From the IMG/VR virus record IMGVR_UViG_2895427314_000003, positions 24,745 to 88,744 of that record: a stretch of 64,000 nucleotides of DNA; one strand, written 5' to 3'. This document shows positions 41,914-63,776 of this stretch, one piece after another (the stretch's first letter is position 1; each line of letters starts with the position of its first letter). A program made the translations under genes and the position numbers. The notes beneath the pieces are model-generated. The model was not told the DNA's origin. It searched no databases and saw only the letters and a program-made list of their open reading frames with translations. This stretch comes from a virus (lineage: Duplodnaviria > Caudoviricetes).

Positions 41914-41925
41914 GGGGGAGGCCGG

Positions 41926-45365: not shown

Positions 45366-45608
45366 CTAGTCAGAGCTGCTGTTCCTGCGTTCCCGCCAGG
45401 CGCGAAAGAGAAGTCCGACAACCACGACGGCAACGGAACCGGCACCGGTCAGCAACGCGTCGGAGATGTCCCCGTGGAGAAGGAACGGAACCACTGCCAG
45501 GGCGGCTGACGTGATCGCTGCCACCACCACCAGAATCAGCGCGGCCAGCCCATACCGCAACGCCCTCTTCAAGACCTCGCCCCCATGCGCGGAGTCTAGC
45601 CGCGCCAT
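45366..45608 (-). CDS. Small two-TM membrane protein (antisense)
   Basis: Two long hydrophobic stretches, basic C-terminus. Confidence 0.55.
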   Translation of the reverse strand: MARLDSAHGGEVLKRALRYGLAALILVVVAAITSAALAVVPFLLHGDISDALLTGAGSVAVVVVGLLFRAWRERRNSSSD

Positions 45609-45685
45609 TTGTCTCCTTGATCGGTGCCGCCCGTTCCTGAGGATGCGCACGGGCGGCACCCCAACCTCCGCGAGAGAGGAACGCG

Positions 45686-47315: not shown

Positions 47316-47537
47316 GCGACGGCCTGTGGCTGCGCTGGTGGCACACCCTGTACCCATCCTTGCTTCCGCGGCATCCCGAGCCCGCGGACGAGGGCACGCC
47401 TGAGCGCGTGCCGGGCCTCTTCGACGAGGCCAACTGAGCGAACTATTTCCAATTTTCGGAAAGAGTTCGCCCCCGAAGCGCCCCGCCCGATGCGGAGGCG
47501 CTTCTTTCATGTCACCTCCCTGTAGGAGAGCATCCTC

Positions 47538-48080: not shown

Positions 48081-48089
48081 GAGGTCGTC

Positions 48090-48443
48090 ATGCAGTTCAA
48101 GCTGTTCGGCCGCGACCCTGCGGCCATCCTGTACGGCCTTCAGTCGCTGCTCGCGGTGCTGGTCGCGTTCGGGACGCTGACCGGTGACGCCGCCGACTAC
48201 ACGATGGTGGTGGCGAACGGTGTGATGGCGCTGATCGTGGCGCTCACCACCCGCCCGGTCGTCGTCGCCGCCATCACTGGTGCCGCGCAGACGATCCTGA
48301 CCGGGATCGTCGCGTTCGGGCTGCCCGGCCTCACCTTCACCACGGAGCAGCAGGGCGTCATCGTCGCCGCCCTGTCTGCGGTGCTGGGCCTGATGCTGAG
48401 GCAGAACCAGGAGCCGAAGGAGACGGCGGTCACCAGCGCCTGA
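48090..48443 (+). CDS. Holin
   Basis: MQFKLFGRDPA.. start typical of actinophage holins; multiple TMs. Confidence 0.8.
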   Translation: MQFKLFGRDPAAILYGLQSLLAVLVAFGTLTGDAADYTMVVANGVMALIVALTTRPVVVAAITGAAQTILTGIVAFGLPGLTFTTEQQGVIVAALSAVLGLMLRQNQEPKETAVTSA

Positions 48444-48474
48444 TCCTGTCGGTCCCGTTCGTTAGCGTGGCGGG

Positions 48475-48645
48475 GTGGATCGGTGGATATGGGTGTCCCT
48501 CACGTACGCAACCTTCGCGGTCGTCGTCAGGGATGGCCGTGTCGTCGATGCCGCCCCGATCGCCCGCTGGTCCATCGGTAAGCCGGAGCAGCGGGTGGCC
48601 GACTACTACAAGCGGAAGGGCGCGGAGTTCGTGCCGCTACCCTGA
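48475..48645 (+). CDS. Small hypothetical protein (56 aa)
   Basis: Translated by hand: VDRWIWVSLTYATFAVVVRDGRVVDAAPIARWSIGKP...; below ORF-track cutoff. Confidence 0.6.
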   Translation: MDRWIWVSLTYATFAVVVRDGRVVDAAPIARWSIGKPEQRVADYYKRKGAEFVPLP

Positions 48646-49524: not shown

Positions 49525-50121
49525 CTACTCGGACTCCGCCACGAGTCGCTTGAATTCGGCCCAGAATTCCGGGCTGCTGTTCGCCTGCAGGCTTCGTAGC
49601 GCTGATGATGCGTTGTCGAGGCGGACAGGGATGCGGCGCCGACGGAAGCCGGCCGCGACAGCAGCCGCGTGGATCGACTTCTCGCCGCGCTGTACGGCTT
49701 CAAACTCTTCTGGCGCCTCTGCTGCCAAACGGGCTGCCGTGTATTCGGTGGACTCTCCCTGGATGGAAAACCCATTAGATTCTAATGGGTTTTCTGCATC
49801 AGCTCTGGGTCGGCCTGGCGTGCCCGCCTTGGCCTCGCGCAGGAGGATCAGGAGATCGGGATCGTCCGTGCCAACGATGCGATCGATTAGCTCGATGGAC
49901 GCGCCCAACCCTTCAGTGGCCGGCGTCGTGACGAACTCCATGAAGCTCTTGAACATCACCACGGTCCTGGATTTGACGTCGTACCGCTCCCGCCATGCTT
50001 CCGTCTCCAGCAAGCGCTTCAGGAGCCGCGGCACGTACGCCAGGCCTGATTCACCGTTATGAACGGCGCCACGAAGGTCCGTTACGAGGTGGTCGTGTTC
50101 CACCCGCGGATCGACCGTCAT
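49525..50121 (-). CDS. Putative DNA-binding protein coupled to the HNH-helicase
   Basis: ATGA overlap; FMEFVTTP..EGLG, PGRPR AT-hook-like, RL....PE.F..V.RGE.SIHAAA..AG helical motif. Confidence 0.8.
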   Translation of the reverse strand: MTVDPRVEHDHLVTDLRGAVHNGESGLAYVPRLLKRLLETEAWRERYDVKSRTVVMFKSFMEFVTTPATEGLGASIELIDRIVGTDDPDLLILLREAKAGTPGRPRADAENPLESNGFSIQGESTEYTAARLAAEAPEEFEAVQRGEKSIHAAAVAAGFRRRRIPVRLDNASSALRSLQANSSPEFWAEFKRLVAESE

Positions 50122-52010
50122 TCGCCCTCCCGTGCGCCGGGAGCTACGCCGGTGGCCAGCCACTGCTTCGCGAACTGCAGACGCCTCTCAAGCTGTTCCT
50201 CGCTGCACTGACGGACTCCCCGTGACACGGGCACGCCAACGAGCTGGTTGAGGCGCCCGTTCACGGTGCCGTAAGGGATGCCGTAGGCACGCGCGACCCG
50301 CTGCGCGGCGGTGTTGTTCTGCTTCTTCAGCTTCTCCTTACGCTCGAACGGCGCGTCGGCGGCCTCCGAGGGGGGAACGGGCTGGGCCGTTGTGAAGGTG
50401 GCGCCTGCGTTGCGCAGGAGCTTGGCCACCAACGCGGTCGGCATGGCGGTGGTTGTCGGGTCCATCCGCTTGACCTGCTCGGCGTTAGCCAGCTCGGCCG
50501 GCGTGATGGTGTCGGAGTCGACGATGACGCCCTCGTCCGTTGGCGTCGCCGAGATGGGGGAAAACAGCGAGAAGAGCGGCTGCTCGCCCGACGGCCCAGA
50601 GCTTTCCCCGCCCGAGTCTCCGAGCAGTTCGGCGTCCTGCTGGTCGAGGATGTGGTCACGCTGTTGCTTGATCTGTGCGGCCATGGCCCGCAGCCTTGAG
50701 TCGTCGGGGATGTAGAGGTAGGCGGTCGGGTCGTCCTCGCCGGGGCGGATTCGTACGAGCCTGCCGACGACCTGGCGGAAGAACAACTCGGTGATCCACG
50801 GTGTGGCGTAGACGCCGACCCGGAGTCGGGGGATGTCCACGCCTTCGCTGACCTTGCGTATCGTGACGATCCACGGAGCGGTCGACGACTTGAAGGTCTT
50901 GATCCGGCCGTCCGCCTCCGGCTCATCGGAGATCGCGAGAACGGGCGTCTGGCCTAGCGCGGTGAGCAGCTTGACCACTTCGCGGGCGGTGTAGGAGTCC
51001 TCGCAGAAGACGATGCCGCCGGCTTCGGGGTCGCTGGTGCGCACTTCGGCGAGCTGCGTGTTGGCCTCTTTGAGGACGGATGGCAGCCATTCGCCGGTGG
51101 GCGAGAGCGCGGTGCGCAGCCGGTGGGCGGCGTCGCGGTCATTGAGTTCATCCTCGAAGGTGGCGCTGCGGTTGGCGCCATTGGGAGCGGTCCACTCCAT
51201 GAGTCCGCCGCGGCGGGGGAAGAAGACGGCACGGACGACGCCGTCGGCCAGAGCCCGGTCGTAGCCGTAGCGGAAGTCCGGCGCGCCAACCCCGTCGACG
51301 TAGTTGACGAACGGGATCTCGTCGTTGTCGGACCGGAAGGGTGTGCCGGACAGCAGGAGCTTGGCCACGGCTGGCTCGAAGGCGGTTCGTGCTCCAGCGC
51401 CCCAGGCGCGCTCTTCTCCGCCGCAGTGGTGGATCTCGTCGAGGATGACCAGCGTCGGCTTCTCGGAGACGAGCTTGCGGTAGATCTGCGGCTGCTTGGC
51501 GATCTCGGCGTAGGTTGCGGCGCACCCTTGCTCGTCAGTGGCGAGGCGGCCATCGGCGGCGTGCCAGCCGGGGTTGATGCTGATGCCCTGTCTGCTGAAC
51601 TCTTCGGCCCATTGGCTTTCGAGGCGTGCGGTCGGTACGGCGGCCACGATGCGTTGGACGCGCCCCGAGGCGAGCGCTCGGCGGGCGATTTCGATCGCCA
51701 GCCTGGTCTTGCCTGCGCCCGGGGTGGCTTCGACCAGAAAGCCGTTGCCTTCGCGCGGAATCCACAGGGTGTACTCCCTGAGGGCGTCCTCCTGCCAGGC
51801 CCGGAGCTGACTCATGCGATCCCCCTTCTGGAGATTGCATTCGGGACACAACGCTTCCCCGTTGCTCACGTCCGTTGCCCCTCCGTGGGAGTAGGGCATG
51901 ACGTGATCTCCGTGCCAGCCCGGCTGGAGATCGACTCCGCAGCGACTGCAGCGTCCATCGTTGGCCAGGAAGAGAGCGGCCCGTTGGGATTGGTTGAAAC
52001 GGCGGCTCAT
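50118..52010 (-). CDS. HNH nuclease fused to superfamily-2 (DExH) helicase
   Basis: CSRC..HGDH..P...GG.T...N...LC..CN..K then ATPGAGKT, LDEIHH, LSGTP, SEGVDIP, QVVGR. Confidence 0.9.
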   Translation of the reverse strand: MSRRFNQSQRAALFLANDGRCSRCGVDLQPGWHGDHVMPYSHGGATDVSNGEALCPECNLQKGDRMSQLRAWQEDALREYTLWIPREGNGFLVEATPGAGKTRLAIEIARRALASGRVQRIVAAVPTARLESQWAEEFSRQGISINPGWHAADGRLATDEQGCAATYAEIAKQPQIYRKLVSEKPTLVILDEIHHCGGEERAWGAGARTAFEPAVAKLLLSGTPFRSDNDEIPFVNYVDGVGAPDFRYGYDRALADGVVRAVFFPRRGGLMEWTAPNGANRSATFEDELNDRDAAHRLRTALSPTGEWLPSVLKEANTQLAEVRTSDPEAGGIVFCEDSYTAREVVKLLTALGQTPVLAISDEPEADGRIKTFKSSTAPWIVTIRKVSEGVDIPRLRVGVYATPWITELFFRQVVGRLVRIRPGEDDPTAYLYIPDDSRLRAMAAQIKQQRDHILDQQDAELLGDSGGESSGPSGEQPLFSLFSPISATPTDEGVIVDSDTITPAELANAEQVKRMDPTTTAMPTALVAKLLRNAGATFTTAQPVPPSEAADAPFERKEKLKKQNNTAAQRVARAYGIPYGTVNGRLNQLVGVPVSRGVRQCSEEQLERRLQFAKQWLATGVAPGAREGE

Positions 52011-52318
52011 CCGCACGCCTCCCCCGAAGCATGGCGCGGCGGCGTCCCCATTAACGCACAGTGAACCGCGCGGATCCGTGAGCAGAAGCGTGCCCTATTC
52101 GAATCCGCTGCGTAGTGATTCAGCGCCTATTGCGAAGAGTTCTCGCATCAATACGGACAGCGATTACAGCACCGTGAAAGCGCCATCCAAAGATCATTGT
52201 TATGAAGATGATGGCAGAGTGTGATGCGGATCACTTGAATGCGCGATGGATTCATTAGATGATGCCCGCTTTCACTCGTTTGCCCTCATGTGATGGAATT
52301 CTCCACAGTCGGTTGACA

Positions 52319-53242: not shown

Positions 53243-53515
53243 TCAGTAGATCTGCATGAGGTGCCGGTCCTCCCCGCCGATGCGGACCGCCGCGTCACGG
53301 TACTCGGGATCAGCCAGCCTGTGGCGGTTGGACTCGGGTTCCAGACTGACGTTCTCCGTGTTGAGCAGGTGAAGGAGGGCCGCGTCTACCTCGGCCCGCG
53401 TCCACGCGCCCAGCCTGGCGCGGATCTCGTTCAGCCGAACCCAGTTGTTCTGTCGCGGGGCTGCCCTGTACGCGGCGATGATCTCCGCTATCAGGGCCCG
53501 GTCCGGGCGGCTCAC
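53243..53515 (-). CDS. Winged-helix-like small protein
   Basis: WVRL.EIR..L....RAEVDAAL..L....V.L.PESN...L......AAVRIGGEDRH. Confidence 0.7.
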   Translation of the reverse strand: MSRPDRALIAEIIAAYRAAPRQNNWVRLNEIRARLGAWTRAEVDAALLHLLNTENVSLEPESNRHRLADPEYRDAAVRIGGEDRHLMQIY

Positions 53516-53823
53516 GTGTTCACCGCCTCTTGTGCCTCCCCGGTGGATCGTGTGGCCCCTGATGGGTTGACGGGGATCACCTTCACCTTGCTAGAGGGTG
53601 GCACTCCGTGTGCGTCCGTGTCTGTCTCGATTTCGACGACCACCAGCGGCGGCCCGTCGTCGGCGGTGTGGTCCACGTTCAGGATGAGCGGCCAGCGCCC
53701 GCCTGCTCGCGGTGGGTGCCAGCCGTTCATGGACACCAGCCGGTACATGCTGCCGCCCCTATACCGCATCTCCAGCTCGGACGCCGGCATCGTGATGGTG
53801 ATGTCCTCCGCCATGGAAGGCAC
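53512..53823 (-). CDS. Hypothetical protein
   Basis: GTGA overlap, GGAGG RBS. Confidence 0.6.
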   Translation of the reverse strand: MPSMAEDITITMPASELEMRYRGGSMYRLVSMNGWHPPRAGGRWPLILNVDHTADDGPPLVVVEIETDTDAHGVPPSSKVKVIPVNPSGATRSTGEAQEAVNT

Positions 53824-53920
53824 CTCCTTGTAGGTGTGGGAAGGGAATGTGGGCCCCGGCCGCGAGGTTCGGGCAGCCGGAGCCGGATGGGTGGGACACC
53901 CTCAACGGGTGTGGGATTAG

Positions 53921-54130
53921 TCAGTCGTTCACCAGCGAGAACGGGGGACGACCAGTGCCGGGCTTCCACCGGCCGACAACCAACTGCTGCGCGTTCGGGT
54001 ACTTAACCCTCCTGTCGATGACGACGTCACCGTCAGGCAGGAGGCGTACCTCGTCGGGGCGGAGGTTCTCTTCCGGGTACTGGTCGATGAACCTCTGCTT
54101 GATCTGCGAGGTCTCGTCGGGGCGAGTCAT
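53921..54130 (-). CDS. Small hypothetical protein
   Basis: ATGA overlap with upstream gene. Confidence 0.6.
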   Translation of the reverse strand: MTRPDETSQIKQRFIDQYPEENLRPDEVRLLPDGDVVIDRRVKYPNAQQLVVGRWKPGTGRPPFSLVND

Positions 54131-54288
54131 CTGCGTCCTCGGAACAGCGCCGTGAGCAGCGTGTGCTCCTGCTCCGGTGTGGCGTCGGCCCATGTGCGCC
54201 CGTTCCACACCCACGCGGCTGCGGGCTGCTGTCGTGGCTGCTGTCTGCGGGTGTACAGCCGGTTCCTGTCTTGCTTCCGTTTGTTCAT
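54127..54288 (-). CDS. Small basic hypothetical protein
   Basis: AAGGAG RBS before ATG 54288. Confidence 0.55.
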   Translation of the reverse strand: MNKRKQDRNRLYTRRQQPRQQPAAAWVWNGRTWADATPEQEHTLLTALFRGRR

Positions 54289-54329: not shown

Positions 54330-56654
54330 TCACGGCGCTTTCTGCGTCGCGCGGAGATTGCCGAGGAGGTCGGGCAGGTCGTCGGGCTTGACGAGCACCT
54401 CGCGTGCTTTAGAGCCCTCGCTTGGACCGACCGCGTTCCGGCTCTCCAGCAGGTCCATCAGCCGCCCCGCCTTGGCGAACCCGACCCGCAGCTTGCGCTG
54501 CAGCATCGAGGTCGAGCCGAACTGCGTGGTCACGATCAGCTCGGCCGCCTGGATCAGCAGGTCGAGGTCGTCGCCGATGTCGAGCGCCTGCTTGGGGGCG
54601 GGCGCGGCCGGTTCGAGGTCTCGGTAGGCGGCGGCGCCCTGCTTCTTGCAGTGGGCGACGATCTGCTGCACCTCTTGCTCGGTGACCATGGGGCTCTGCA
54701 ACCGGATGGGCTTGTTCTCGCCCGCGGGCAGATACAGGCCGTCGCCCTTGCCGATGAGGTTTTCTGCGCCCGGTTGGTCGAGGATGACCCGCGAGTCGGT
54801 GAGGCTGGAGACGGCGAAGGCGAGCCTGGACGGCACGTTCGCCTTGATCAGGCCGGTGACGACGTCCACCGACGGCCGCTGCGTGGCGATTACCAGGTGG
54901 ATGCCCGCCGCGCGGGCGAGCTGGGTGATGCGCACGATCGAGTCCTCGACGTCGCGCGGGGCCACCATCATCAGGTCGGCCAGCTCGTCCACGATCACCA
55001 GCAGGTACGGGTACGGCTGGTAGACCCGCTCGCTGCCCGGCGGCGGCTGCAGCTTGCCCGCCCGCACGGCCTTGTTGAACTCGTCCACGTGCCGGAACCC
55101 CGACGCCGCCAGGTCGTCGTAGCGCCGATCCATCTCGCCCACGACCCATTCGAGGGCCTCGGCGGCCTTCTTCGGGTTGGTGATGACCGGGGTGATGAGG
55201 TGCGGGATGCCGTTGTAGACGGCGAGTTCGACCCGCTTGGGGTCGATGAGCACCATGCGGACTTCCTCCGGGGTGGCGCGGAGCAGGACGCTGGCGATCA
55301 GGTCGTGGACGCAGATGGATTTGCCGGCGCCGGTGGCGCCAGCGATGAGCAGGTGCGGTGTTCCGGCCAGGTTGGCGACGATCGGCTTGTTCTCGATGTC
55401 GGCGCCGAGCGCGACCGTCAGCGGGTGCTTGCGGGCCTTCGCCTCCGCCGAGTTGAGGATGTCGCCCAGCCGGATCAGGTCTCGCTCGGCGTTGGGGACG
55501 TCGATGCCGACCGCGTCGCGGCCGGGCGCGGGAGCGTGGATCTGTACCTGGTCGCATTTCGTGGCCACGCGGAAGTTCTTCAACAGGCCGGTGATCTTCT
55601 CGACTTTGACGCCGGGGCCGAGCGTCACGAAGTAGCGGGTGACTTGCGGGCCGCGAACGAAGTCGTCCACGGCGGCATCGATGTCGAACTCGGCCAGTAC
55701 CCGGGAGAGCGCTTCGACGACGGCATCGGTTGCCCTGGTGCGCGGCCGGGCGGTGCTGCCCTGCTTGAGCATGCGCGGGTCGGCGGGCACGTACGAGGCG
55801 GGCGTGCGCGTGTTCCCTGGGGCTGCGAACTCTTGCGGTGGCCCGTCATCGGCGGAGGCCGGCTCAGGTTCGCCGGCGGCTTCGTCGGACGTCTCGTCGG
55901 TGCGGTCCGGCTCCGTCTCTGGTGGTTCCTGGTCGCCTTCGGGCGGGCTCTCTTGCGCGCCGACTGCGACCGGTGCGGCGAACCGGCTGCGGACGGCGGC
56001 GGCCCGCTCGGGGATGTCGCGCGGATGGACGCCGCCCGCGATGAACAGCGCCAGGAGTCCTGCCGCGGCAAGGATCGGCACGTCCGCGTCCGGGATGTGG
56101 GAGGTCAGCCAGGCTGCCGCCGCGTATCCGGCCAGGCCGCCCGTCTCTGGGGACGCGACACCGCCGCCGTGGACGGCGTGCGCGATGCCCGCCCAGGCGG
56201 CCAGCGCGACCGCCCAGCCCGACAGCAGGCGGGTCATGGGCCGGTCCGGGTGGCGGAAGCGCCGCCACGCCGCCACCATCACGGCAGGCGGGACGGCGAC
56301 CGCCGCAGACCCGACCAGGGCGCGCGTCAGCGTCGCAGCCGCGGCAGCGAACATGTTGTCCCACAGGTTCCACACGCCGGCCGCGAGCAGCAGCCCGGCA
56401 GCGAGAACGGCCAGGGCGGCGTTGTCGTGGTGAGCGGTGGCGGCGTCTGCGGGTTCGCGGCGGATGCTTCGGCCCACCCGGTGGGCGCTTCTGGTCCACG
56501 CCGCGGACAGCAGCCGCTTGGTCTTGCGGGCGATCCACGCGGCCGGGTCCTTGCTCGCGGTCCGTGCCTTGCGGGCAGGGAGCGCCGTACGGGCTGGTTT
56601 CGCGGGAGCGCGCCGGGCGGCTGGCCGGCGTGTCCTTCTGGTGGCGGCCATCAC
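54330..56654 (-). CDS. ftsK: DNA translocase FtsK/SpoIIIE, chromosome-type (N-terminal TMs, linker, motor, gamma domain)
   Basis: [49 protein letters not shown], gamma domain [25 protein letters not shown]. Confidence 0.92.
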
Positions 56655-56842
56655 CGTCTGCCGATCTCGCCGCGGCGGTTGCAGCGCGGGCACGCCCGGT
56701 ACCGGTTCGGCCAGAACCGCGCCGATAACTGGCCGCTGCCCTTGCAGCGGGGGCAGCGTGACAGCCGGTTGCGCTGGTAGTCGATGACCACCCAGGCGGT
56801 GAACGCGAGAGCGGCGAGAATCAGGAAGGCTTCCATGGTCAT
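56651..56842 (-). CDS. Small membrane protein with DnaJ-type zinc finger
   Basis: N-terminal [10 protein letters not shown]...CPRCNRRG. Confidence 0.75.
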
Positions 56843-57381
56843 GACCCCGCTTCGGTGAGCCATCGGCCGTTGACCGGCAGGACGTGGCCTTGGTTGACGA
56901 ACCGGTAGATGGCCTCATACCGCTCCCCCAACTCGGTGGGAATGGCTGAGAGGCGGCGGCGGGCGTAGCGGAGCCGGGCGAGGCCGCTCTGGACGATGGT
57001 TTCGGCGTTGAGGCAGTCGGCGAGCCAGGCGCGGGTGGCGTCGGACATACCGCCCGAGGCGTTCGCTTCGGCGTGGGCCTGCTCCTGTGCGTGCCGATAC
57101 GACGCGGCGATCTTGGACTGGAAGGTGGTCAGGCGGGCCGCCCGCCCGCGCAGTTCGTGTTCGAGGCCGACAACGGCAGAGACAAGATCACGGTCGGCTG
57201 GCCAGGGAACCGCCCAGGACGCGATCTCCTCATGTCCGAGGGTCAGCGCCACACCTGCCAGGCCGCTGTAGGAGACCGGGTCGAGACCGGCCGCACGGCA
57301 GCGAGCGTGCATGATCGCTGCCGTGGAGGCGGCGTCAGTGAAGTCGGTGTGCGCCGCGGCGGCACTCGTGTGCGTCATCAC
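56839..57381 (-). CDS. Hypothetical helical protein
   Basis: ATGA overlap; coding-like composition. Confidence 0.7.
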
Positions 57382-57429
57382 GCACCCCCGCGGGTGTCAC
57401 GGATTGTGAGGGTGGTGGAGCGCCGCGGA

Positions 57430-57516
57430 AATGTCCGGCAGGGGCTGTCTGGTCTCTCATATACGGGGGCCGGGGGAGGGGGTCCGGACATTCTTCCGGA
57501 CAATCCACCGGACATT
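57430..57516. repeat. CCGGACA(T/A)T repeats: three direct copies at 12-bp period plus one inverted (clt-like)
   Basis: 57484-57492, 57496-57504, 57508-57516; inverted 57430-57438. Confidence 0.8.
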
Positions 57517-57522
57517 TCTTCG

Positions 57523-59676
57523 TCACACAGCGTTACCATTTGGGGTGTCCTCCTCGTCGGGCTCGGACGGCGCCAGCCGCCAGATCGAGCCGCGGCCCTT
57601 GCCCTCCCGCACCGCCACGCCTTCGGCGTGCAAGCGGGTCAGGCACTCGTGCACCTTCCACCGGCTCACCCCGAGGTCCTCCAGCGCCTCCGCCGCGGGC
57701 CGCACCGTCGTGCCGTCGGCGAGCAGGTCCAGCAGCCGCGCGCGGACCTGCTCGGACATGTCGACCTGTTCGGCCATCTGCCGGGAGCGTTCCTCCGCCG
57801 ACTGCGCCAGCGCCGCGGCCACCTCCGGGTCGGGTTCGGCCAGCGGCGACAACGAGGCGAGGTAGGTCCGGGTCTCGTCGATCTTCTCGGTGGCCTTGTC
57901 GAGCCCGTTGTCCTGCTGGCCGACCGGGCTCGTTTCCGGGCTCGCGTCCGGGGCCGTGTTGTTCGGCGTAGTCCCGGCCTGCTGCGCAGCAGGCCGGGAC
58001 TCCTTGAGATCGCGGGCATGCATCTCACCGGGGCCGGGCTCGGAGGCCAGCAGCCGCTCCAGCTTCACACCCAAGTGCGCGGTCAGGAGCGGCTCCAGCC
58101 GGGACGGGCGACGGCCCTCGGCCACCCGGTCGATGTCGACCAGCTCGCGCAGGTTGAACGTGCGGCCGATCTCGTAGTCGCCGCCCAACTGCGCGATGCA
58201 CGCCACACCCTTGTGGCCCTCGCCGTAGGTGGCCATGTCCGGCAGCGTCAACCCCAGGTCACCAGCCGCGTTGAACGCCTCGTTACCGGCGCCGAGCTGC
58301 AGGAACACGAAGTTGCGGATCTGGGTGCGGATGTCGGTCGACCCGATCCACTCCTGGGTGCCGCGCTGACCGGCCAGGATGAGCGCGAACCCCTCCGACG
58401 GGCCCTTGCTGGCGATGTCGACGACGCACTGCCGGATGGCGTGGCCGATGTTGTCGTTGTGGCCGAGCAGCGCGTCCATCTCGTCCACCTCGATCACCCA
58501 CAGGGGGCGGCCGGCGCGCGGTTCGAACACCGTCTCGTCGCCGTGGTTGGCGCCGCGCCACTCCATGCCGTCGCGGACCAGCTCGAGGATGCGCAGCGCA
58601 CGCACCCGCTCCTTGGGGCCGCACGCCGACAGGGCGAACGCCTTGCGCCACCGGTACATCTCGGGCGCCTTGATGCCGACGTTGATCCCGATGGGGAAGA
58701 CGTTGTCGGCGGCGGTGAGCCGCTCGTTGATGTTGCTGAGCAGCACGGTCTTGCCCGACCGGTTGATGGCGACGATCAGCGTGTGCAGGCCGCCGTCTTG
58801 GTTGCAGACCGTCAGCGTCAGCGGTCTGCCCGTCTCCGGATCGACCCCGACCGGCTGCGGCTTGCGGATGTCGGCCACCTCCGGCAGCACGATCTCCGGG
58901 TTGTCGTCCAGGACGGGGTGCGGAATCGGCTGCGCCCACGGGTCGGTGTACCGGATGGAGATCCACAGGCGTCCGGCGATGGAGTCAGGCCGGCACCTGA
59001 CCCGCTCCCGGGGCAGGCCGAGCTTCTCGGCGATCAGCTCTTCCTGGCTCGGGGTCGCGAACGCCGAAGCGCGCTGCCCGGTGCCCTGCGTGTCGATGAG
59101 GAACCGTTCACCCAGCCGGGTCGGCTCGTGATACAGCAGGTGAGAGCCGCGCATCCCGAACTTCGGGCCCAACTGGTGCCAGCCGGTCTTCTGCTCCCGC
59201 CACACGATCTTCTTCTGGACGGCGACATCGCCCCGGTACACCCAGTAGGCGACCCCGTAGGCGGCCATGTACAGCCACGTGAGCGCCCCGTACGGGCCCC
59301 ACGTCGGGCCGACGGCGGAACTGAGCGCCATCCACCCGCCGGCCCCGGCCACGCCGGCGGCGAGCCGGAACGCCCGGTCCTCACCGCCGATGTTGCGCAC
59401 CCCCACCAGGTAGGTGACCACAGCGGCGGCAACGCCGCCCGCGGCCAGCCACGGCGACGACCAGTCCAGCCCGTACCCGGCCCAACCGGCCCCGTACAGG
59501 CCGGCCCCGACGGGCAGCGGAATGCGCTCGGCGGGCTTCTGGCGGACCCACCGGACCAGGCCCAGGCCGCGCGGGCGCTTCACCGCCTCCTGCCCCTGCG
59601 GGGTCGTCTCGGCGCCGTCCTTCGGGCGGCGGCGGGAGAACGCCTCGCGGAGCGTCGGCTTGGGCTGCATGGTCAC
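57523..59676 (-). CDS. traB: TraB-like conjugative DNA translocase (TMs, FtsK-like ATPase, C-terminal winged helix)
   Basis: HTLIVAINRSGKT Walker A variant, VIEVDE Walker B, LAGQR, C-terminal GVSRWKVHECL..L..EG....GKGR...W. Confidence 0.7.
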   Translation of the reverse strand: MTMQPKPTLREAFSRRRPKDGAETTPQGQEAVKRPRGLGLVRWVRQKPAERIPLPVGAGLYGAGWAGYGLDWSSPWLAAGGVAAAVVTYLVGVRNIGGEDRAFRLAAGVAGAGGWMALSSAVGPTWGPYGALTWLYMAAYGVAYWVYRGDVAVQKKIVWREQKTGWHQLGPKFGMRGSHLLYHEPTRLGERFLIDTQGTGQRASAFATPSQEELIAEKLGLPRERVRCRPDSIAGRLWISIRYTDPWAQPIPHPVLDDNPEIVLPEVADIRKPQPVGVDPETGRPLTLTVCNQDGGLHTLIVAINRSGKTVLLSNINERLTAADNVFPIGINVGIKAPEMYRWRKAFALSACGPKERVRALRILELVRDGMEWRGANHGDETVFEPRAGRPLWVIEVDEMDALLGHNDNIGHAIRQCVVDIASKGPSEGFALILAGQRGTQEWIGSTDIRTQIRNFVFLQLGAGNEAFNAAGDLGLTLPDMATYGEGHKGVACIAQLGGDYEIGRTFNLRELVDIDRVAEGRRPSRLEPLLTAHLGVKLERLLASEPGPGEMHARDLKESRPAAQQAGTTPNNTAPDASPETSPVGQQDNGLDKATEKIDETRTYLASLSPLAEPDPEVAAALAQSAEERSRQMAEQVDMSEQVRARLLDLLADGTTVRPAAEALEDLGVSRWKVHECLTRLHAEGVAVREGKGRGSIWRLAPSEPDEEDTPNGNAV

Positions 59677-59713
59677 CTCACAACAGGCCTGGACAGGGGA
59701 CGTGGGCAGAGGG

Positions 59714-60757
59714 CTATCCGGCGCGGCCGGTGGTGAAGAAGCGGCCCTTGAACGGCATGATCACGCCGGAGCGGACCGCGCGCAGGATCTCCTCGTAGAC
59801 CGCCCGCCACCGCTTGTGCGCGCCGGCCATCGCCGCTCCCGCGTCGCCTGCCGCCATGGCGTAGTCGGCGATGCCCTGCACGGAGGCCGGGTCGAGGCCG
59901 AGCGCGCCGACGCACGTGCCGTGCACGTTCTTCAACGCCTCCGCGTAGGCGATCATCCCGGTCATCTCGCCGAGCATGAAGCGCTCCAGCGCGATGTCGC
60001 TGCCCGGTTCCAGGTTGCCGACCCGTCGGATCAGCATCTGCCAGTCGGGGGGCGGCGGCAGCGGCAGCCCGTTCGAGGCAGTGGGGGCGGCGGCGGGTTG
60101 CGAGGTGGTGTCGGGGGTTGTCATGGCTTCTCCAGAGGTGGGCGGGGGCGCGAGCCGGAGCAGGCGGGTCGGAGGGGCGGGCGGAACCACGGGAGCGGCA
60201 GGCGCTACGGTCGGAGGGGTGTCGGGCGGGGTGCCTGCGCGGCGCCACGGCCGATGCCGGTGCAGCCAGCCGCGGACCCGGCTCATCCGGCCCGAGGTGC
60301 CGGCCCGTCCGGCCGGGCGTTCGCGGCGGCGGAACAGCCGCGGCTCGCGATCAGCGGCCTTGGCGTCCCAGCGGCGGCCCATCCGCCGCATCGCGGAGCG
60401 GCGAAGCCGGGCCGTGACGCGGGCGGTCTTCTTGGCAGGGGCAACGAAGGTGGTGCTCACCGTCCACGCGGCGATCCTGCCGCCTGCCTTCGCAGCAGGC
60501 AGGATGCCCTTGCGTCCCGTCCAGATGGCGGACCGCTTGCCGCCGCGCAGGGCGCTGCCGATGGCGCGGCCTGACAGGCCCGTGACCGCGTCGCCGAACG
60601 TGGTCCCTTGCAGTTCACGGGCGCCACTGGCGTTCCACGTGCGGATCAGCCAGTTGGCCGTCTTGGGGCGGTCCGCCGGCTGCGACATGCGTCTGGCTGT
60701 CCCAGCGAGGACCGCGATCACGACGGCGGCGATGACGAACTCGAGGCCGCTCATCAC
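59714..60757 (-). CDS. Membrane-anchored Arg-rich protein with C-terminal helical domain (Spd-like)
   Basis: N-terminal TM; position upstream of traB. Confidence 0.7.
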   Translation of the reverse strand: MMSGLEFVIAAVVIAVLAGTARRMSQPADRPKTANWLIRTWNASGARELQGTTFGDAVTGLSGRAIGSALRGGKRSAIWTGRKGILPAAKAGGRIAAWTVSTTFVAPAKKTARVTARLRRSAMRRMGRRWDAKAADREPRLFRRRERPAGRAGTSGRMSRVRGWLHRHRPWRRAGTPPDTPPTVAPAAPVVPPAPPTRLLRLAPPPTSGEAMTTPDTTSQPAAAPTASNGLPLPPPPDWQMLIRRVGNLEPGSDIALERFMLGEMTGMIAYAEALKNVHGTCVGALGLDPASVQGIADYAMAAGDAGAAMAGAHKRWRAVYEEILRAVRSGVIMPFKGRFFTTGRAG

Positions 60758-60785
60758 CGCTCCTGGCGTGCGGGCAGGCCATCCA

Positions 60786-60974
60786 TCAAAAAATCGCCCC
60801 CCACAGGTTCTCGAAGGCGAGCCCGCCGGGCGTCGTCACGCCCGCCAGCAGGGTGGCGGTCAAGAACCCGAACGAGCCGATGAACAGCAGCTCGTACCAG
60901 CGGGTCACTTTGACGATCACGCAGGTGGTGATCACGCCCAGAAGGACGAGCCACGCAACCACCATCCAAGACAT
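60786..60974 (-). CDS. Small membrane protein (Spd-like)
   Basis: Two to three hydrophobic segments; AAGGAG RBS. Confidence 0.7.
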   Translation of the reverse strand: MSWMVVAWLVLLGVITTCVIVKVTRWYELLFIGSFGFLTATLLAGVTTPGGLAFENLWGAIF

Positions 60975-60985
60975 GTCACATCTCC

Positions 60986-61144
60986 TTACGTGGGTGTTGA
61001 CTGCACCGCGCACGGCGGGTTGGCGACGGACTGGATGCACTCCTGGCAGCGAGGCGAGTAGCCGTCCCTACCGTGGACGGAACAGAAAGGCTTGGCCTCG
61101 TCCGGGTGGAAGCACTGGCAGAGCGGACACTGGTAGCGGCCCAT
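60986..61144 (-). CDS. Small Cys-rich zinc-finger protein
   Basis: CPLC..FH...FC..H...RCQEC; TGATG overlap. Confidence 0.65.
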   Translation of the reverse strand: MGRYQCPLCQCFHPDEAKPFCSVHGRDGYSPRCQECIQSVANPPCAVQSTPT

Positions 61145-62607
61145 CAGGCGCTCCTTTCGCGCCGCGTGGCGTTCAGCAGGCGGCGGCGTGTGCGGACGTC
61201 CAACTGGCCGAGCCATTCGTTGCGCTTGCGCCGGCCGTAGGAGTCGACACATCCGCCCTCTCTGGCCAGGTCGGCGCCGGTGGGCAAGTCGCCTCTGTCG
61301 ATGGCGTCCTGCCAGTAGCGCCACATCGCTTCGGTGGCGCTCGCGGTGGCGGTCACGGTGTCGTCGCCGTCGTCGTCGGGTTCCTCGCGGAGCTGCCGCA
61401 GCACCTCTTCCGCTTCGAGATCCGCCACCTCGTCCGCTACCTCGTCCGCCACTGGATGATCGGTAGCGGCACGAGTAGCGGTCCAAGTGTCGGTTGCGGT
61501 GTCGCCAGGCAGGGGCGGGACGGGCCGCAGCGCCACTCGACCCGCCACTAGATCCGCTACCGTCGGCGCCACCTCACCCGAGGTGGCGCTACCAGGTGGC
61601 GGGATGCGCCGGCCGACGAGCATGGAGGCGAGCATTTTGATCGTCGCGGCGGAGTCCGGGTCGCGTCCTTGGAGGACGGCCTCGGTCAGCTTCTGTATCT
61701 CGGCCGCGAGCCGGGCGGCTTCACTGAGCCGCTTCTGGCCGTTGACGGCCGGATGGTCGAGGTCCCGCCACGGCGCCAGCGCGGTGGACAGCACAACAGA
61801 TAGGTCCTCCCCGCCACCGAGCGTGCGCAGCACGGCCAGCAGCGTCTCTTGAGTACGCGGGTTGGTGGCCAGGTCGGTGTGGGCGACAGCGAGATCGAGC
61901 ATCCTGTCTCGCCTGCCGATCGCCGCAGCCACCTTCTTGGCTTTGGCGTTCGCCTCGCGCATCTGGTCCACGCGCTTGGCGGCCAGCGCCACCCTTTTGA
62001 GCCTGCGGTGCGTGTCCACCTCGGAGGCGGTACGGTCACGGGCTTCCGCCAGGCCAGCCCACACCAGGAGCCGTTCGGGTGTGAGCCGCCAGTTGATGCC
62101 GGCCTTGCCGCGCTGGCGCCGCCGCTCCAGCCGCATGCCGCGTTCCCACATCCACGCCGCCACCAGCGGGGCGGCAAGCCGGAAGACGACCTCAGCGGGC
62201 GCCTTGGCGTCCATGCTCGACAGGACAGCGGTCAGGCACGCCAGCGCCCACACAGCGATCCCATCGAGGCCGGCAGAGCCGTGCTCGCGCATGTTGCGGC
62301 GGGCCCGCACGGCCTCGGTCACCATGGACAGCTCGATGAACGCGAACAACGCGATCTGCAGCGGGCCGTCCAGCTTGAGCACGTCGCGGGTGAATCGCCA
62401 CATGCCTTCCGCGGACACGCCGGTCGCAATGGCGGCCACGCCGCGGGTCAGCCAGTCCTCGACCGGGCTGGAGGAGGAGGCATCCCTCCTACGGTTCTTG
62501 CGCGTCCCGTAGATCACGGCCAGGGGTACGCTGGCCGCAGCGATCGTGAGAAGCGCACCAACCGCCCACACCACTTCGGCGGGCGGCAGATACAGGTTCC
62601 AGTCCAT
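61144..62607 (-). CDS. DUF2637/SpdB-like multi-TM transfer protein with C-terminal helix-turn-helix
   Basis: Four TM segments, RLAAPLVAA..WE, C-terminal PTGADLAREGG...SYGRR. Confidence 0.7.
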   Translation of the reverse strand: MDWNLYLPPAEVVWAVGALLTIAAASVPLAVIYGTRKNRRRDASSSSPVEDWLTRGVAAIATGVSAEGMWRFTRDVLKLDGPLQIALFAFIELSMVTEAVRARRNMREHGSAGLDGIAVWALACLTAVLSSMDAKAPAEVVFRLAAPLVAAWMWERGMRLERRRQRGKAGINWRLTPERLLVWAGLAEARDRTASEVDTHRRLKRVALAAKRVDQMREANAKAKKVAAAIGRRDRMLDLAVAHTDLATNPRTQETLLAVLRTLGGGEDLSVVLSTALAPWRDLDHPAVNGQKRLSEAARLAAEIQKLTEAVLQGRDPDSAATIKMLASMLVGRRIPPPGSATSGEVAPTVADLVAGRVALRPVPPLPGDTATDTWTATRAATDHPVADEVADEVADLEAEEVLRQLREEPDDDGDDTVTATASATEAMWRYWQDAIDRGDLPTGADLAREGGCVDSYGRRKRNEWLGQLDVRTRRRLLNATRRERSA

Positions 62608-62975
62608 CAGGCGGCGACCTCCATCGGCACAAGCTGGGCAGTGGCGTCGAGGAAGGCCCGCAGCACGACGGCGTCGGCGTAGTAGCCGCGAGCCTGCTCG
62701 CCCATCGGGAGGGTGACGATGAGCCAGTCGGGCCGGGCGTGCGGCCCTACGGTGAACGTGCCGTCGCTGGCCGGGCGAACCAGTCCTGCGGCGAGCACCG
62801 CCCTGGCCACCAGGTAGCTGCTGCACGAGTCGCTGCCGTCGTGGCGGGTGAAGACGACCTCGACTGTGTTCGGGCAGTCCTTTCCGTAGGCGAGGAACGC
62901 GGCGTGCACCTCGATCTGGTCGCCGGTTCCCCACAGGGTGAAGGGCTGGTGGACGAAGTCCGTCGCGCTGGTCAT
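62607..62975 (-). CDS. SsgA-like (SALP family) protein
   Basis: LAYGKDCPNTVEVVF / VARAVLAAGLVRPASDGTFTVGP / VLRAFLDATAQLVP parallel the SsgA motifs L.Y...DP.AV...F / FARELL..G...P.G.GDV.VWP / V..FL.RT..LVP. Confidence 0.7.
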   Translation of the reverse strand: MTSATDFVHQPFTLWGTGDQIEVHAAFLAYGKDCPNTVEVVFTRHDGSDSCSSYLVARAVLAAGLVRPASDGTFTVGPHARPDWLIVTLPMGEQARGYYADAVVLRAFLDATAQLVPMEVAA

Positions 62976-63139: not shown

Positions 63140-63301
63140 TCAGCCGGCGTTCTTCGCCTGCGCGTGGTCGCCGTGCGCCCTCTTCGCCTGCGCCTCGGTG
63201 GCGAAGAACGCCTGACTCGCCTCGTTGCTGCACGAACAGGACCACCGGTACTGGCGGGACGGGGTAGGGACGGGAACCAGGGTGAAGGTGTGGGCAGTCA
63301 T
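63140..63301 (-). CDS. Small Cys/His protein
   Basis: WSCSC...A.RAH.DH. Confidence 0.6.
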   Translation of the reverse strand: MTAHTFTLVPVPTPSRQYRWSCSCSNEASQAFFATEAQAKRAHGDHAQAKNAG

Positions 63302-63381
63302 GCCGATCTCCAGACGGGGGTTGAGGGAAGGGCCCGCCCACCGCCTGCGAGGGTGGGAGAGATGCGGTGGGCGGGCCGTGG

Positions 63382-63636
63382 TCATCGGGCCGTCCTCCGC
63401 CAGAGGCGGCGACGGCGAGGGCAGGCCAGCGTCTTCACAGCGTTGTGGACGTCGGAGTGGATCTGCTGCAACGTGGTGGCGATGGCGATCAGCGCCAGCG
63501 TCTTCGCAAGCTCCACGTCCCGAAGCGCGTGCTCTTCCCGCATGTCGCTCGGCCGGTAGCGGTTGAGTTCCTTGCTGGCGGACTCGAACAGCTCGGTTGC
63601 GCGGGCGGCGAAGTCAGAGGGTGCGGTGTCGGTCAT
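63382..63636 (-). CDS. Hypothetical protein
   Basis: ATGA overlap; GGAGG RBS. Confidence 0.6.
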   Translation of the reverse strand: MTDTAPSDFAARATELFESASKELNRYRPSDMREEHALRDVELAKTLALIAIATTLQQIHSDVHNAVKTLACPRRRRLWRRTAR

Positions 63637-63776
63637 CGAGCTGCCCTCCGAGAACAGGACGAGCAGCGGACATCCGTGCACCGGCCCCGGTCCAGCGTGT
63701 GCGGGAGAGCACGCGGTGGAGACTTCATCTCCCGTTCAAGGGCCGAGAGCGTGGCGCGGATCTCAGGGACGGTCAT
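63633..63776 (-). CDS. Small hypothetical protein (47 aa)
   Basis: Translated by hand, ATGA overlaps both sides. Confidence 0.5.
   Translation of the reverse strand: MTVPEIRATLSALEREMKSPPRALPHTLDRGRCTDVRCSSCSRRAAR

Follow-up and report, generated by a model that had tools for sequence, protein, structure and literature searches.

The right-hand end of the 64,000-nucleotide stretch of viral DNA analysed here (the window), from 53.2 to 64.0 kb, is occupied by a single leftward, largely translationally coupled operon. From our comparative analysis, it is probably a GntR-controlled operon for DNA transfer and spreading, belonging to a temperate plasmid-phage of ~94 kb, or conjugative prophage, that resides in a tRNA-Thr gene of a Nonomuraea-like host; the "plasmid" half of this label is putative. 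The core of the module consists of a membrane protein, p347, an FtsK-fold ATPase and p180, while SsgA and FtsK are its dispensable accessories. Because the kit recurs on related plasmids and prophages, it is real, and it is not unique to this element.

Borders and phage modules of the element

An exact 47-bp repeat of the 3′ end of tRNA-Thr(GGT) forms both borders of the element, and a repeat search found no third copy within the 94 kb. The only tyrosine integrase lies at the left end, on the arm opposite the transfer operon. Directly to the right of the right repeat follow the host genes PBP, tRNA-Met, rpmG and MurB. A siphovirus late module (24130..48645, plus strand; PHROGs, Terminase_7) encodes small and large terminase, portal, protease, major head, major tail, tape measure, Dit, minor tail, endolysin and holin, and is convergent with the minus-strand transfer operon. 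Since the repeat is confined to the two borders, the integrase is single and the virion and lysis module is complete, all of this constitutes one element, hosted by a Nonomuraea-like actinomycete. The preliminary description had compared the region with AICEs and noted that no RepSA/RepAM was visible in the window. A separate AICE was rejected, the operon being instead one arm of the att-bounded ~94-kb prophage with the integrase at its other end.

Between the transfer operon and the lysis genes lies a pair on the minus strand (49525..52016; Pfam) encoding an HNH-SF2 helicase (632 aa) and a coupled 198-aa protein. This pair adjoins FtsK in the Nonomuraea element L040 (84% and 71% identity, respectively) and accompanies lysis genes in the related provirus L041 (87% and 75%). 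No replication or partition genes were identified in the element.

Organization of the transfer operon

The operon starts ~340 bp past the end of the window, with an HTH_17/BldC-like gene that diverges from a neighbouring GntR/UTRA gene, and ends at about 53243 with four coupled small ORFs of 53, 69, 100 and 90 aa (53243..54288, minus strand; gene calls at L003 15383-16428, GC3 scan). It exceeds the range 54330-62975 first assigned to it, within which every named gene lies on the minus strand where it had been placed. Its portrayal as a mostly coupled leftward operon holds good: neighbouring genes overlap by 1 or 4 nt, as in the database gene calls for the p180 gene (there p179) and p63, for p63 and FtsK, and for the small ORFs past FtsK. 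None of the operon ORFs is disrupted; their starts are coupled and their GC3 lies at 0.82-0.94. Two small minus-strand ORFs near the beginning, 63382..63681 (99 aa in the longest form; 84 aa in the database call, 63382-63636, L003 6035-6289) and 63140..63385 (81 aa in the longest form; 53 aa in the database call, 63140-63301), have no Pfam, NCBIfam or PHROG match.

The TraB-like ATPase and its repeats

A candidate TraB-like dsDNA translocase of 717 aa (57523..59676, minus strand) was recognized by its AF2 fold, family profile and conserved motifs. It comprises an N-terminal helical membrane domain (residues ~39-173), an FtsK-fold P-loop motor (~179-545) and a C-terminal winged helix (~640-701). 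In Foldseek, its AF2 model (pLDDT 83.6) matches the FtsK motor (6t8o/6t8b/2iut; E 1e-11, TM 0.64) and further TcpA and EccC, and the family profile searched against the PDB finds FtsK 2ius at E 8e-5 as well as wHTH regulators. The family has 106 homologs, the named ones all from Streptosporangiaceae, and G308 K309, D398 E399 and R438 are invariant across 34 of them. The protein reaches no Pfam or NCBIfam family at E<=0.01 and none of the curated TraB or FtsK_SpoIIIE models, NF041214 plasmid_TraB and PF01580 included, and tblastn against 72,556 plasmids and 50,697 phages gave no match; it is therefore not a sequence relative of the tested TraB proteins. The initial assignment as a TraB-like translocase with adjacent repeats is borne out by the FtsK fold, the wHTH and the repeat cluster, but not by any TraB family model.

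A clt-like repeat cluster (57432..57514, unstranded) starts 9 bp past the stop codon of this gene. On the coding strand (A)TGTCCGG occurs three times with a 12-bp spacing, followed by a spacer of the form CCCCTCCCCC...GTATA and then by one inverted copy. Four of the 14 TGTCCGG matches in the window fall within these 83 bp (57432-57514), and over the whole window the motif is not in excess. The same layout follows the TraB-like gene in 9/9 relatives, with motifs that differ and are lineage-specific, and the repeat motif does not cleanly track the recognition helix of the wHTH. With a promoter-like GTATA element between them, the repeats could just as well act as an operator for p180-ftsK.

Membrane proteins and p180

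The membrane proteins of the operon had been called DUF2637/Spd-like. Hydropathy identifies p487 (61144..62607, minus strand; 487 aa) as a polytopic membrane protein that has a long tail in the cytoplasm, and its homologs in L009, L011, L015, L040 and L044 share 38-53% identity. Only its position and its language-model features (0.95 to DUF2637 clusters) agree with that name; the DUF2637 HMM gives no match even at E<=10 and the profile-profile test failed (hhalign, 7.5%). A genuine DUF2637 gene occupies the operon position of p487 in L016, L043 and pSROS01. We regard p487 as a positional equivalent of DUF2637/SpdB-type proteins, as language-model features and gene position suggest.

Downstream, p84 (60786..61040, minus strand; 84 aa in the longest form, 62 aa in the database call) has two transmembrane helices and homologs in L009, L011 and L015. 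Hydropathy and homologs define p347 (59714..60757, minus strand; 347 aa), in which a membrane anchor at the N-terminus and a low-complexity middle precede a conserved C-terminal stretch of ~100 aa (40-48% identity in 10/10 related loci), and which is always immediately upstream of the TraB-like gene. The 180-aa partner p180 (56839..57381, minus strand), likewise defined by its homologs, always follows that gene, is conserved at 30-38% identity in 10/10 related loci and belongs to no family, with no Pfam match and no usable atlas match.

The SsgA-like protein and FtsK

The 122-aa product of 62607..62975 (minus strand) is an SsgA-family (SALP) protein, as had been proposed. It scores 44.8 bits against PF04686 in a Pfam search (cut-off 25) and matches SsgB 3cm1 in sequence at E 5e-4, and the top eight PDB fold matches of its AF2 model (pLDDT 90) are all SsgB (TM 0.71-0.76). 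With the Pfam SsgA model, chromosomal SsgB scores ~115 bits and element copies 45-90; the NCBIfam SsgD equivalog gives 22.9 bits, below its cut-off of 185. In alignment with element-borne SALPs, the protein is short, without the C-terminal ~20-aa tail of other SALPs. An ortholog with 59% identity in N. bangladeshensis adjoins a TraB-like gene, and tblastn gave no match among 50,697 phage records. The stop codon overlaps the ATG of p487 by 1 nt; the gene is coupled to transfer-type membrane genes and not to ftsK. The conservation of synteny argues for joint action of the SsgA-like gene and the transfer genes.

The description of the second translocase as a full housekeeping-type FtsK was correct. 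The gene (54330..56918, minus strand; longest ORF 862 aa; Pfam, NCBIfam, PHROG) encodes a TM region, alpha, beta and gamma, with Pfam scores of 69.9 (FtsK_alpha), 225.8 (FtsK_SpoIIIE) and 74.7 bits (FtsK_gamma) and intact Walker A and B motifs. In the database call the protein starts at 56651 and has 773 aa, with a 63-aa ORF (p63) at 56651-56842 ahead of it. Region-wise identity and trees mark it as a mosaic with Nonomuraea chromosomal ftsK: the distal motor and gamma are 97-98% identical to the chromosomal protein, whereas the alpha/proximal motor is only ~51% identical, the alpha/proximal-beta part forming a very long branch. The last 1 kb of the gene has 87.8% nucleotide identity to N. gerenzanensis chromosomal ftsK. 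FtsK is found in 0/9 other loci of the window's own TraB-like family and elsewhere occurs only beside the distant pSROS01/pNon2-type ATPase. About 13/151 genomes hold a second gamma-domain FtsK copy.

Recurrence in related elements

An equivalent module sits at the same position in related prophages, at least seven of which keep its arrangement. In three prophages of Sphaerisporangium and Nonomuraea, homologs of Dit, minor tail and endolysin (37-67%) converge on the same TraB-like module. Four IMG/VR proviruses with endolysins 86-89% identical each have a leftward P-loop ATPase of 600-800 aa with a sub-threshold FtsK_SpoIIIE match, neighboured by a DUF2637 gene in one and a p487 homolog in another. 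A 13-kb AICE of Microbispora that has NUDIX, Xis and Int also shows the operon order, and pSROS01, pNon2 and PhiNon1 share the order GntR divergent from BldC/HTH_17, membrane protein, SsgA, ~660-790-aa ATPase, with or without FtsK.

SsgA is present in 5/10 close relatives and FtsK in few. The co-occurrence survey found SsgA, a TraB-like ATPase and FtsK together on pSROS01, on its near copy in genome G101:C29 and on S. jomthongense contig C13, as in the window element; on pSROS01 and in other Streptosporangiaceae, DUF2637 and a distant TraB-like ATPase accompany SsgA and FtsK. SsgA occurs without FtsK in L012, L013, L014, L036, pNon2 and PhiNon1; the reverse holds for L040 and for an A. graeca plasmid, which has regulators and FtsK in common with the module and has no such ATPase. 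The three-part combination, which the preliminary description did not know from AICEs, had precedents in pSROS01 and in the ssgA genes already noted on PhiNon1/pNon2 (PMC5431353).

Possible mode of action and alternative explanations

From gene content, folds, motifs, repeats, borders and synteny, we infer how the operon may act. By analogy with Streptomyces TraB/Spd, the 717-aa ATPase would form a membrane ring, its C-terminal winged helix would read the 8-bp repeats directly behind its own gene, and the motor would drive the element, as double-stranded DNA, through cross-walls or into an adjacent hypha, with p180 and the membrane proteins p487, p84 and p347 as helpers. An optional part would be the SsgA-like protein, which most likely guides the apparatus, or local remodelling of the wall, to tips or cross-walls. 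The full FtsK may serve as a second optional pump, its gamma domain perhaps kept host-like through recombination with chromosomal ftsK; because gamma is host-like, it probably acts on septal DNA like host FtsK, whether by clearing the element, by moving it or by aiding the resolution of its multimers.

An alternative that we consider unlikely is that the SsgA-like gene, and perhaps FtsK, are phage auxiliary genes altering septation, fragmentation or sporulation for phage production or dispersal, independently of the ATPase/membrane module. [quoted passage not shown] However, the SsgA-like gene is translationally coupled to p487, lacks tblastn matches in phage records, and recurs at an unchanged operon position on an AICE and on plasmids that are not phages, elements that gain nothing from phage dispersal. 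More doubtful still is a function in spores, as first suggested, in which the SsgA-like protein and FtsK place or create sporulation septa and pump or retain the element in prespores, with spore inheritance instead of transfer as the selected function. The confirmed SALP fold and family, a gamma domain 97% identical to that of host-type FtsK, which acts at septa, the co-occurrence of both genes, and the suggestion of D'Argenio et al. (PMC5431353) of a part in morphological differentiation for element-borne ssgA genes are consistent with this; yet each gene is found without the other, the SsgA-like gene is coupled to the membrane genes rather than to ftsK, and an integrated prophage is inherited with the chromosome, leaving loading unneeded. 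Least probable is that the operon is a passive or decaying remnant of an AICE or plasmid, which the phage arm captured or which fused with it once both had integrated in tandem. In favour of this reading, the operon has no Rep or Int of its own, its parts (ATPase type, SsgA, FtsK) come and go among relatives and the alpha/proximal-beta part of FtsK is on a very long branch; intact ORFs with coupled starts and high GC3, intact catalytic motifs in both pumps, the absence of an internal att copy and the arrangement kept among related prophages all oppose it.

Comparison with known systems

PhiNon1, a 59-kb plasmid-phage of N. gerenzanensis (PMC5431353), resembles the window element in being a temperate tailed phage with a tyrosine integrase and a tRNA-gene 3′-end site, and in grouping together the genes for an SsgA-family protein, a DUF2637 membrane protein and a P-loop ATPase of 654 aa that is a distant relative of the window's TraB-like family (hhalign 94%). 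It is nevertheless a different phage, with only two small proteins matching, tRNA-Val instead of tRNA-Thr as its site, 59 instead of 94 kb, and no FtsK; circular/plasmid forms have been shown for it. The ssgA-like genes of PhiNon1 and pNon2 were pointed out in 2016, with the suggestion that they join in morphological differentiation (D'Argenio et al., PMC5431353); that paper leaves TraB and FtsK unmentioned and the transfer-like module undiscussed. [quoted passage not shown]

The 28.2-kb circular plasmid pSROS01 of Streptosporangium roseum DSM 43021 (NC_013596.1) follows the same operon logic and holds the full combination: GntR divergent from a BldC-family HTH, DUF2637, SsgA-family, a 724-aa ATPase (hhalign 86% to the TraB-like profile), a small protein and an 811-aa FtsK with gamma. 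Its HTH_17 protein and FtsK are each 52% identical to those of the window, but its ATPase and DUF2637 protein are beyond BLAST reach. It further differs in being a free plasmid that encodes ParA and an additional HATPase_c_2-like "ATP-binding protein" and carries no phage genes. Sequenced in 2010, pSROS01 has automatic annotation only, and a literature search found no study of its transfer-operon genes.

The SsgA-like protein shares Pfam family and fold with SsgA/SsgB of sporulating actinomycetes, but it is encoded within a transfer operon; the ssgA homolog of Streptomyces phage Dagobah is a precedent for a phage-borne copy (PMC7650747). The Streptomyces TraB/Spd systems (pSVH1, pIJ101, pSG5; Thoma et al. 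2015, PMC4447253) differ in that the 717-aa protein lies outside TraB by sequence (NF041214 and PF01580 unreached), that neither a SALP nor a second gamma-bearing FtsK has been described on those plasmids, and that the window system sits in a phage genome. They are alike in a GntR regulator beside a coupled small-membrane-protein operon, in a hexameric FtsK-like pump whose N-terminus lies in the membrane and whose C-terminus is a wHTH (PMC4447253), and in direct repeats of 8 bp (clt) that lie behind the pump gene or at its 3′ end (PMC4447253, PMC3583192). The features published for TraB, clt, TraR and coupled spd operons match those of the window (PMC4447253, PMC3583192).

A prophage with a plasmid-type transfer arm

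The operon belongs to a prophage, of which it forms a plasmid-type transfer arm; the element is not an AICE (an integrative element of the pSAM2/SLP1 type). The window covers the rightmost 64 kb of a provirus record of 88.7 kb in IMG/VR, and identical DNA is present on a 413-kb contig of assembly GCA_008086045.1, whose host flank is nearest to Nonomuraea (82–84% nucleotide identity to N. bangladeshensis; 74–79% to other genera for most pieces). The left edge of the record falls on the stop codon of a tyrosine integrase (583 aa), just beyond which lies an intact tRNA-Thr(GGT). The 3' end of this tRNA gene is repeated exactly over 47 bp, inside 103 bp of 84% identity, 5.2 kb past the window end. 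The direct-repeat borders are placed at 9848–9894 of locus L007 (tRNA-Thr c9851–9924) and at 9642–9688 of locus L004, the latter corresponding to window coordinates 69187–69233. Host genes (PBP, tRNA-Met, rpmG and MurB) follow straight after the right repeat, and no further copy of the 47-bp core occurs within the 94 kb. Between the repeats are the integrase, RecT/YqaJ, methylases, a complete siphovirus late and lysis module, an HNH-helicase pair, the transfer operon and a GntR block; no second integrase, Rep or host gene separates the phage genes from the operon. The IMG/VR provirus call starts 95 bp inside the left border and ends ~5.2 kb short on the right, where it misses the HTH_17 gene, the GntR/UTRA gene, DUF6247 and two further GntR genes.

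An AICE is taken here to span 9–24 kb and to carry int-xis, a RepSA/RepAM-type replication gene, tra/spd genes and its own att sites. The preliminary description had viewed the operon in the light of such elements, a reading that does not hold, as the sole att pair encloses 94 kb with a full phage. Its observation that no RepSA/RepAM is visible in the window agrees with the searches: no rep gene was found in database gene calls and Pfam scans, and neither ParA, ParB nor Rep was recognised by Pfam in the large early-region and inter-module proteins scanned (~20 early genes). Complete virion and lysis genes are joined in one replicon with genes of the plasmid transfer type, one of two marks of an actinomycete plasmid-phage such as pZL12 or PhiNon1; the other would be an autonomous plasmid state.

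The link to phages extends to relatives. The TraB-like module converges on Dit, minor tail and endolysin homologs (37–67%) in Sphaerisporangium sp. TRM90804, S. melleum and N. bangladeshensis. Four IMG/VR proviruses with endolysins 86–89% identical carry, after the lysis genes, a leftward gene for a 600–800-aa P-loop ATPase with a sub-threshold FtsK_SpoIIIE match, which adjoins a DUF2637 gene (53.9 bits) in one of them and a homolog (49%) of p487, an operon protein of 487 aa, in another.

Other genes accompany these modules. The HNH-SF2 helicase gene and its coupled 198-aa gene (window 49525–52016) recur at 84–87% and 71–75% identity, near FtsK in a Nonomuraea element (L040 18851–21330) and directly after the lysis genes in a related provirus (L041 12536–15000); the two genes travel as a unit among these elements. 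A Sphaerisporangium relative has a XerC-like recombinase gene (320 aa) and an HU gene between transfer module and lysis genes (L016 13045–14435), and an HU gene likewise accompanies the ATPase in provirus L041.

Layout of the operon

The leftward gene string was defined by a GC3 scan, ORF lists and database gene calls. On the minus strand it comprises two small ORFs (63382–63681 and 63140–63385), the SsgA-like gene (62607–62975), p487 (61144–62607), p84 (60786–61040), p347 (59714–60757), the gene of the TraB-like 717-aa protein (57523–59676), p180 (56839–57381) and ftsK (54330–56651 or 54330–56918). The gene calls add a possible 63-aa ORF between p180 and ftsK, as well as four small ORFs that end the operon and reach down to 53243. 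The stop codon of the SsgA-like gene shares 1 base with the start of p487, and overlaps of 1 or 4 bases occur at several further junctions, so that the description as a mostly coupled leftward operon is correct. The observation itself is real and non-random. The operon starts outside the window, where an HTH_17/BldC-like gene ~340 bp past the window end diverges from a 253-aa GntR/UTRA gene.

Hydropathy identifies p487, p84 and p347 as membrane proteins, and an atlas search with p180 gave no usable match. A 216-aa high-GC3 open frame antisense to p487 (window 61862–62512, plus strand) is a shadow ORF and no gene: the conservation of p487 alone accounts for its "matches" in relatives.

The SsgA-like protein

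The SsgA-like protein belongs to the SALP family (PF04686), which it matches with 44.8 bits against a cut-off of 25, residues 27–119 aligning to profile positions 4–96 of 98; a six-frame search reproduces this result. The sequence also matches SsgB 3cm1, and its AF2 model (pLDDT 90, pTM 0.82) finds SsgB in all of its best 8 Foldseek matches in the PDB (6slc, 6suj and 3cm1; TM 0.71–0.76). Family score and SsgB-type fold together uphold the original call for 62607–62975. Orthology to a named SALP (SsgA, SsgB or SsgD) was rejected, the best NCBIfam score, for SsgD, being 22.9 bits where 185 are required; on PF04686, chromosomal SsgB reaches ~115 bits. The protein is short, ending ~20 aa before other element-borne SALPs and without their C-terminal tail (alignment A5). 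An ssgA gene on phage Dagobah has been noted (Hardy et al., 2020, PMC7650747), but tblastn found nothing similar among the collected phages and plasmids, and therefore the known phage SsgA is not a close relative of the protein studied here.

The genes next to SsgA vary from locus to locus. Element-borne SsgA-family genes are often paired, in tandem or at both module ends (L035 6787–7700; L036 14070–14893; L013 7035–7801; L014 7524–7919 and 14657–15094). In several elements an "ATP-binding protein" of the HATPase_c_2 type, anti-sigma-kinase-like, is encoded within ~1 kb after them.

The TraB-like ATPase and its membrane partners

At E≤0.01 the 717-aa protein falls into none of the families of NCBIfam or Pfam. 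It misses both the curated TraB model NF041214 and the FtsK_SpoIIIE model PF01580, the latter being absent even at E≤10. Tblastn of the plasmid and phage collections gave no match, and classical Streptomyces TraB is therefore not a close relative; single-protein scans of viral and genome contigs likewise found no close relatives of the gene. The AF2 model (pLDDT 83.6) begins with a membrane-helix bundle (39–173), continues with a P-loop domain of alpha/beta type and ends in a winged helix-turn-helix (wHTH, 642–701); hydropathy agrees with a membrane-associated N-terminus. Foldseek aligns the middle part with FtsK motors (6t8o, 6t8b and 2iut; E 1e-11, TM 0.64–0.65 over ~410 columns), followed by the pCW3 coupling protein TcpA and then EccC. 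A profile of 34 homologs compared with the PDB recovers FtsK 2ius at E 8e-5 and wHTH regulators at positions 589–678, while Walker A G308 and K309, Walker B D398 and E399, and R438 are invariant in the 34 sequences. This 34-sequence alignment was too diverse for a pattern search; a 10-sequence alignment gave 6 loci. With a motor fold, a membrane N-terminus and a wHTH but no curated family, the name "TraB-like" is thus right as architecture and wrong as family membership. Because the family is invisible to current HMMs, its elements are missed by AICE/ICE finders and lumped into provirus calls.

A similar division applies to the supposed DUF2637/Spd-like proteins, whose membrane nature stands by hydropathy, whereas p487 fails the sequence tests for DUF2637: hmmscan gave no PF10935 match at E≤10, and hhalign of p487 homologs against DUF2637 proteins returned a probability of 7.5%. 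The protein nevertheless fills the operon slot held by a true DUF2637 gene in relatives, and its hydropathy suggests a polytopic N-terminus with a cytoplasmic tail. Its positional equivalents score 27.3 bits (Streptosporangium roseum plasmid pSROS01), 24.3 bits (N. gerenzanensis plasmid-phage PhiNon1) and 53.9 bits (locus L043) on PF10935. Language-model features of p487 place it at 0.95 with DUF2637 clusters and at 0.87 with the HTH_SpdB_C cluster, evidence at the level of a lead.

Repeats behind the TraB-like gene

Repeats adjacent to the TraB-like gene had been reported, and they are present directly behind it. They begin 9 bp past the stop and, on the coding strand, consist of three copies of (A)TGTCCGG at 12-bp spacing, a CCCCTCCCCC...GTATA stretch and then one inverted copy. 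These 83 bp hold 4 of the window's 14 TGTCCGG sites, and the motif is not in excess over the window as a whole. An equivalent layout occurs at the same place in all nine related loci (10/10 with the window), with differing motifs that include TGTCCCA, ATCGTTCC, TTGGACC, CGTTTCA and CCCTTCA. By analogy with Streptomyces clt loci, whose direct repeats are likewise short (PMC4447253, PMC3583192), they may form a clt; they could equally well surround a promoter of p180-ftsK and serve as its operator. The motif does not cleanly follow the recognition helix of the wHTH: some pairs suggest covariation, which L011 versus L009 contradicts, and it is therefore not claimed.

The accessory FtsK is a mosaic

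The element FtsK has alpha (PF17854, 69.9 bits), beta (PF01580, 225.8 bits) and gamma (PF09397, 74.7 bits) domains, and its motor motifs are intact. Its N-terminus scores 16.2 bits on the 4TM model PF13491, below the cut-off of 23.1, and hydropathy gives 4–5 hydrophobic segments at 167–298. That the gene might be the housekeeping copy at a conserved chromosomal locus was rejected: it lies inside the att-bounded element, and in five related genomes and in N. gerenzanensis the chromosomal ftsK genes share a synteny that the element locus lacks. Of the "full housekeeping-type FtsK" first described, the alpha, beta and gamma domains stand.

A search for homologs of the element FtsK listed FtsK proteins of other Nonomuraea only. 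Compared with Nonomuraea chromosomal FtsK, residues 1–370 are 15–40% identical, residues 387–520 (alpha and proximal beta) ~51% (against all copies in the comparison), residues 560–700 98%, residues 707–775 ~58% and gamma (patch 785–862) 97%, whereas the chromosomal orthologs are 93–100% identical among themselves over the whole motor. In region trees, 560–700 groups with Nonomuraea chromosomes, and 387–520 sits on a long branch among mobile copies. The host-like patch contains a loop that differs between genera, and the last 1 kb of the gene has 87.8% nucleotide identity to the N. gerenzanensis chromosomal gene. The pattern suggests patchwise recombination or gene conversion between the mobile and the housekeeping paralog, of which this patchwise identity to the host-type gene would be a clean example.

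The same operon on other elements

The preliminary description did not know the three-part combination from described AICEs and proposed a survey of co-occurrence. The combination already exists in sequenced, partly published elements. The 28-kb circular pSROS01 has a GntR gene divergent from a BldC-family regulator, then a hypothetical gene, DUF2637, SsgA family, ATP-binding protein, a 724-aa protein, a 166-aa protein and FtsK, and contig G101:C29 holds a near copy of this module with two tandem SsgA genes; in both, SsgA, pump and FtsK stand together. In S. jomthongense, SsgA and an FtsK 69% identical to that of the window share a 15-kb contig. The 724-aa protein is a distant TraB-like relative (hhalign 86%), and its C-terminal ~140 aa are duplicated as the next 166-aa gene at 66–68% identity (L031 2838–3338 and 3361–5535).

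Partial versions are also found. A Microbispora rosea AICE encodes NUDIX, GntR/UTRA, WhiB, SsgA, p347, a TraB-like protein (50% identical), p180, a second SsgA, Xis and Int, and a Nonomuraea sp. element encodes p487, a 786-aa ATPase, FtsK (65%) and the HNH-helicase pair (84%/71%) and no SsgA. Ten loci have the window's own TraB-like family: p347 and p180 accompany it in all ten and SsgA in five, and FtsK occurs in the window only. SsgA and FtsK are optional add-ons of the transfer module.

The TraB-like profile finds a match at E≤1e-10 in 55 of the 151 genomes from the GTDB family, with about ten being close. A single high-scoring SsgB is present in nearly all genomes; ~18 carry extra lower-scoring SALPs, and ~13 a second gamma-bearing FtsK; these tallies take in one unpublished genome (G129), on which no conclusion rests. 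Two genomes have their sole high-scoring gene of the SsgB type ~3 kb away from a distant TraB-like gene (G076:C68 31046–35770 and G091:C1 168713–173381). This arrangement resembles the reported integration of PhiNon1 beside ssgB; instead of a functional link, it may reflect a hot spot of integration. The 11.85-Mb N. gerenzanensis chromosome (NZ_LT559118.1) is labelled "plasmid I" in the plasmid collection, and chromosomal genes can therefore show as plasmid matches.

Implications and comparison with known systems

The original interpretation is partly supported: the tie between the SsgA-like gene and the transfer genes survives, by synteny, while the AICE setting and the novelty of the combination do not. 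Spore loading would be a speculative reading of results that fit ordinary transfer and spreading just as well. A speculative reading, which we hold to be rather improbable, is that a lineage of Streptosporangiaceae temperate siphoviruses spreads through mycelium as virion-free dsDNA by a TraB/Spd-like apparatus, with the SALP as a working part and the accessory FtsK as a second septal pump. The SALP would direct the pump, or a remodelling of the wall, to hyphal tips or cross-walls, and the FtsK, kept host-like by gene conversion, would serve the element at septa. If so, SALPs would have a new, non-sporulation role as a translocation part. Should the operon work in DNA transfer as proposed, tailed prophages of mycelial actinomycetes would spread in two ways, by virions and by plasmid-like dsDNA transfer, and the boundary between phages and conjugative elements would be blurred in important antibiotic producers. 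The recurrence of an SsgA-family gene in transfer operons of plasmids, an AICE and prophages is a concrete, testable lead, linking proteins of cell-wall and septum positioning to DNA passage across hyphal walls, a still poorly understood step of Streptomyces-type conjugation.

The TraB/Spd/TraR/clt system has been described, and SpdB2 homologs occur on actinophages (Thoma et al., 2015, PMC4447253). Literature searches that combined SsgA with conjugation, AICEs, pSROS01 or DUF2637 brought up no publication on the operon. The closest account concerns N. gerenzanensis, in which PhiNon1 is a tRNA-integrating plasmid-phage reminiscent of pZL12, and the ssgA-family genes on PhiNon1 and the plasmid pNon2 were read as a hint of a role in differentiation; TraB and FtsK are not mentioned there (D'Argenio et al., 2016, PMC5431353). 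The 654-aa ATPase of PhiNon1 matches the TraB-like profile (hhalign 94%), and the 662-aa ATPase of pNon2 is 25% identical to the pSROS01 724-aa protein (tblastn). Although they differ from the window in having no FtsK, both pNon2 and PhiNon1 thus resemble it in combining SsgA with such an ATPase.
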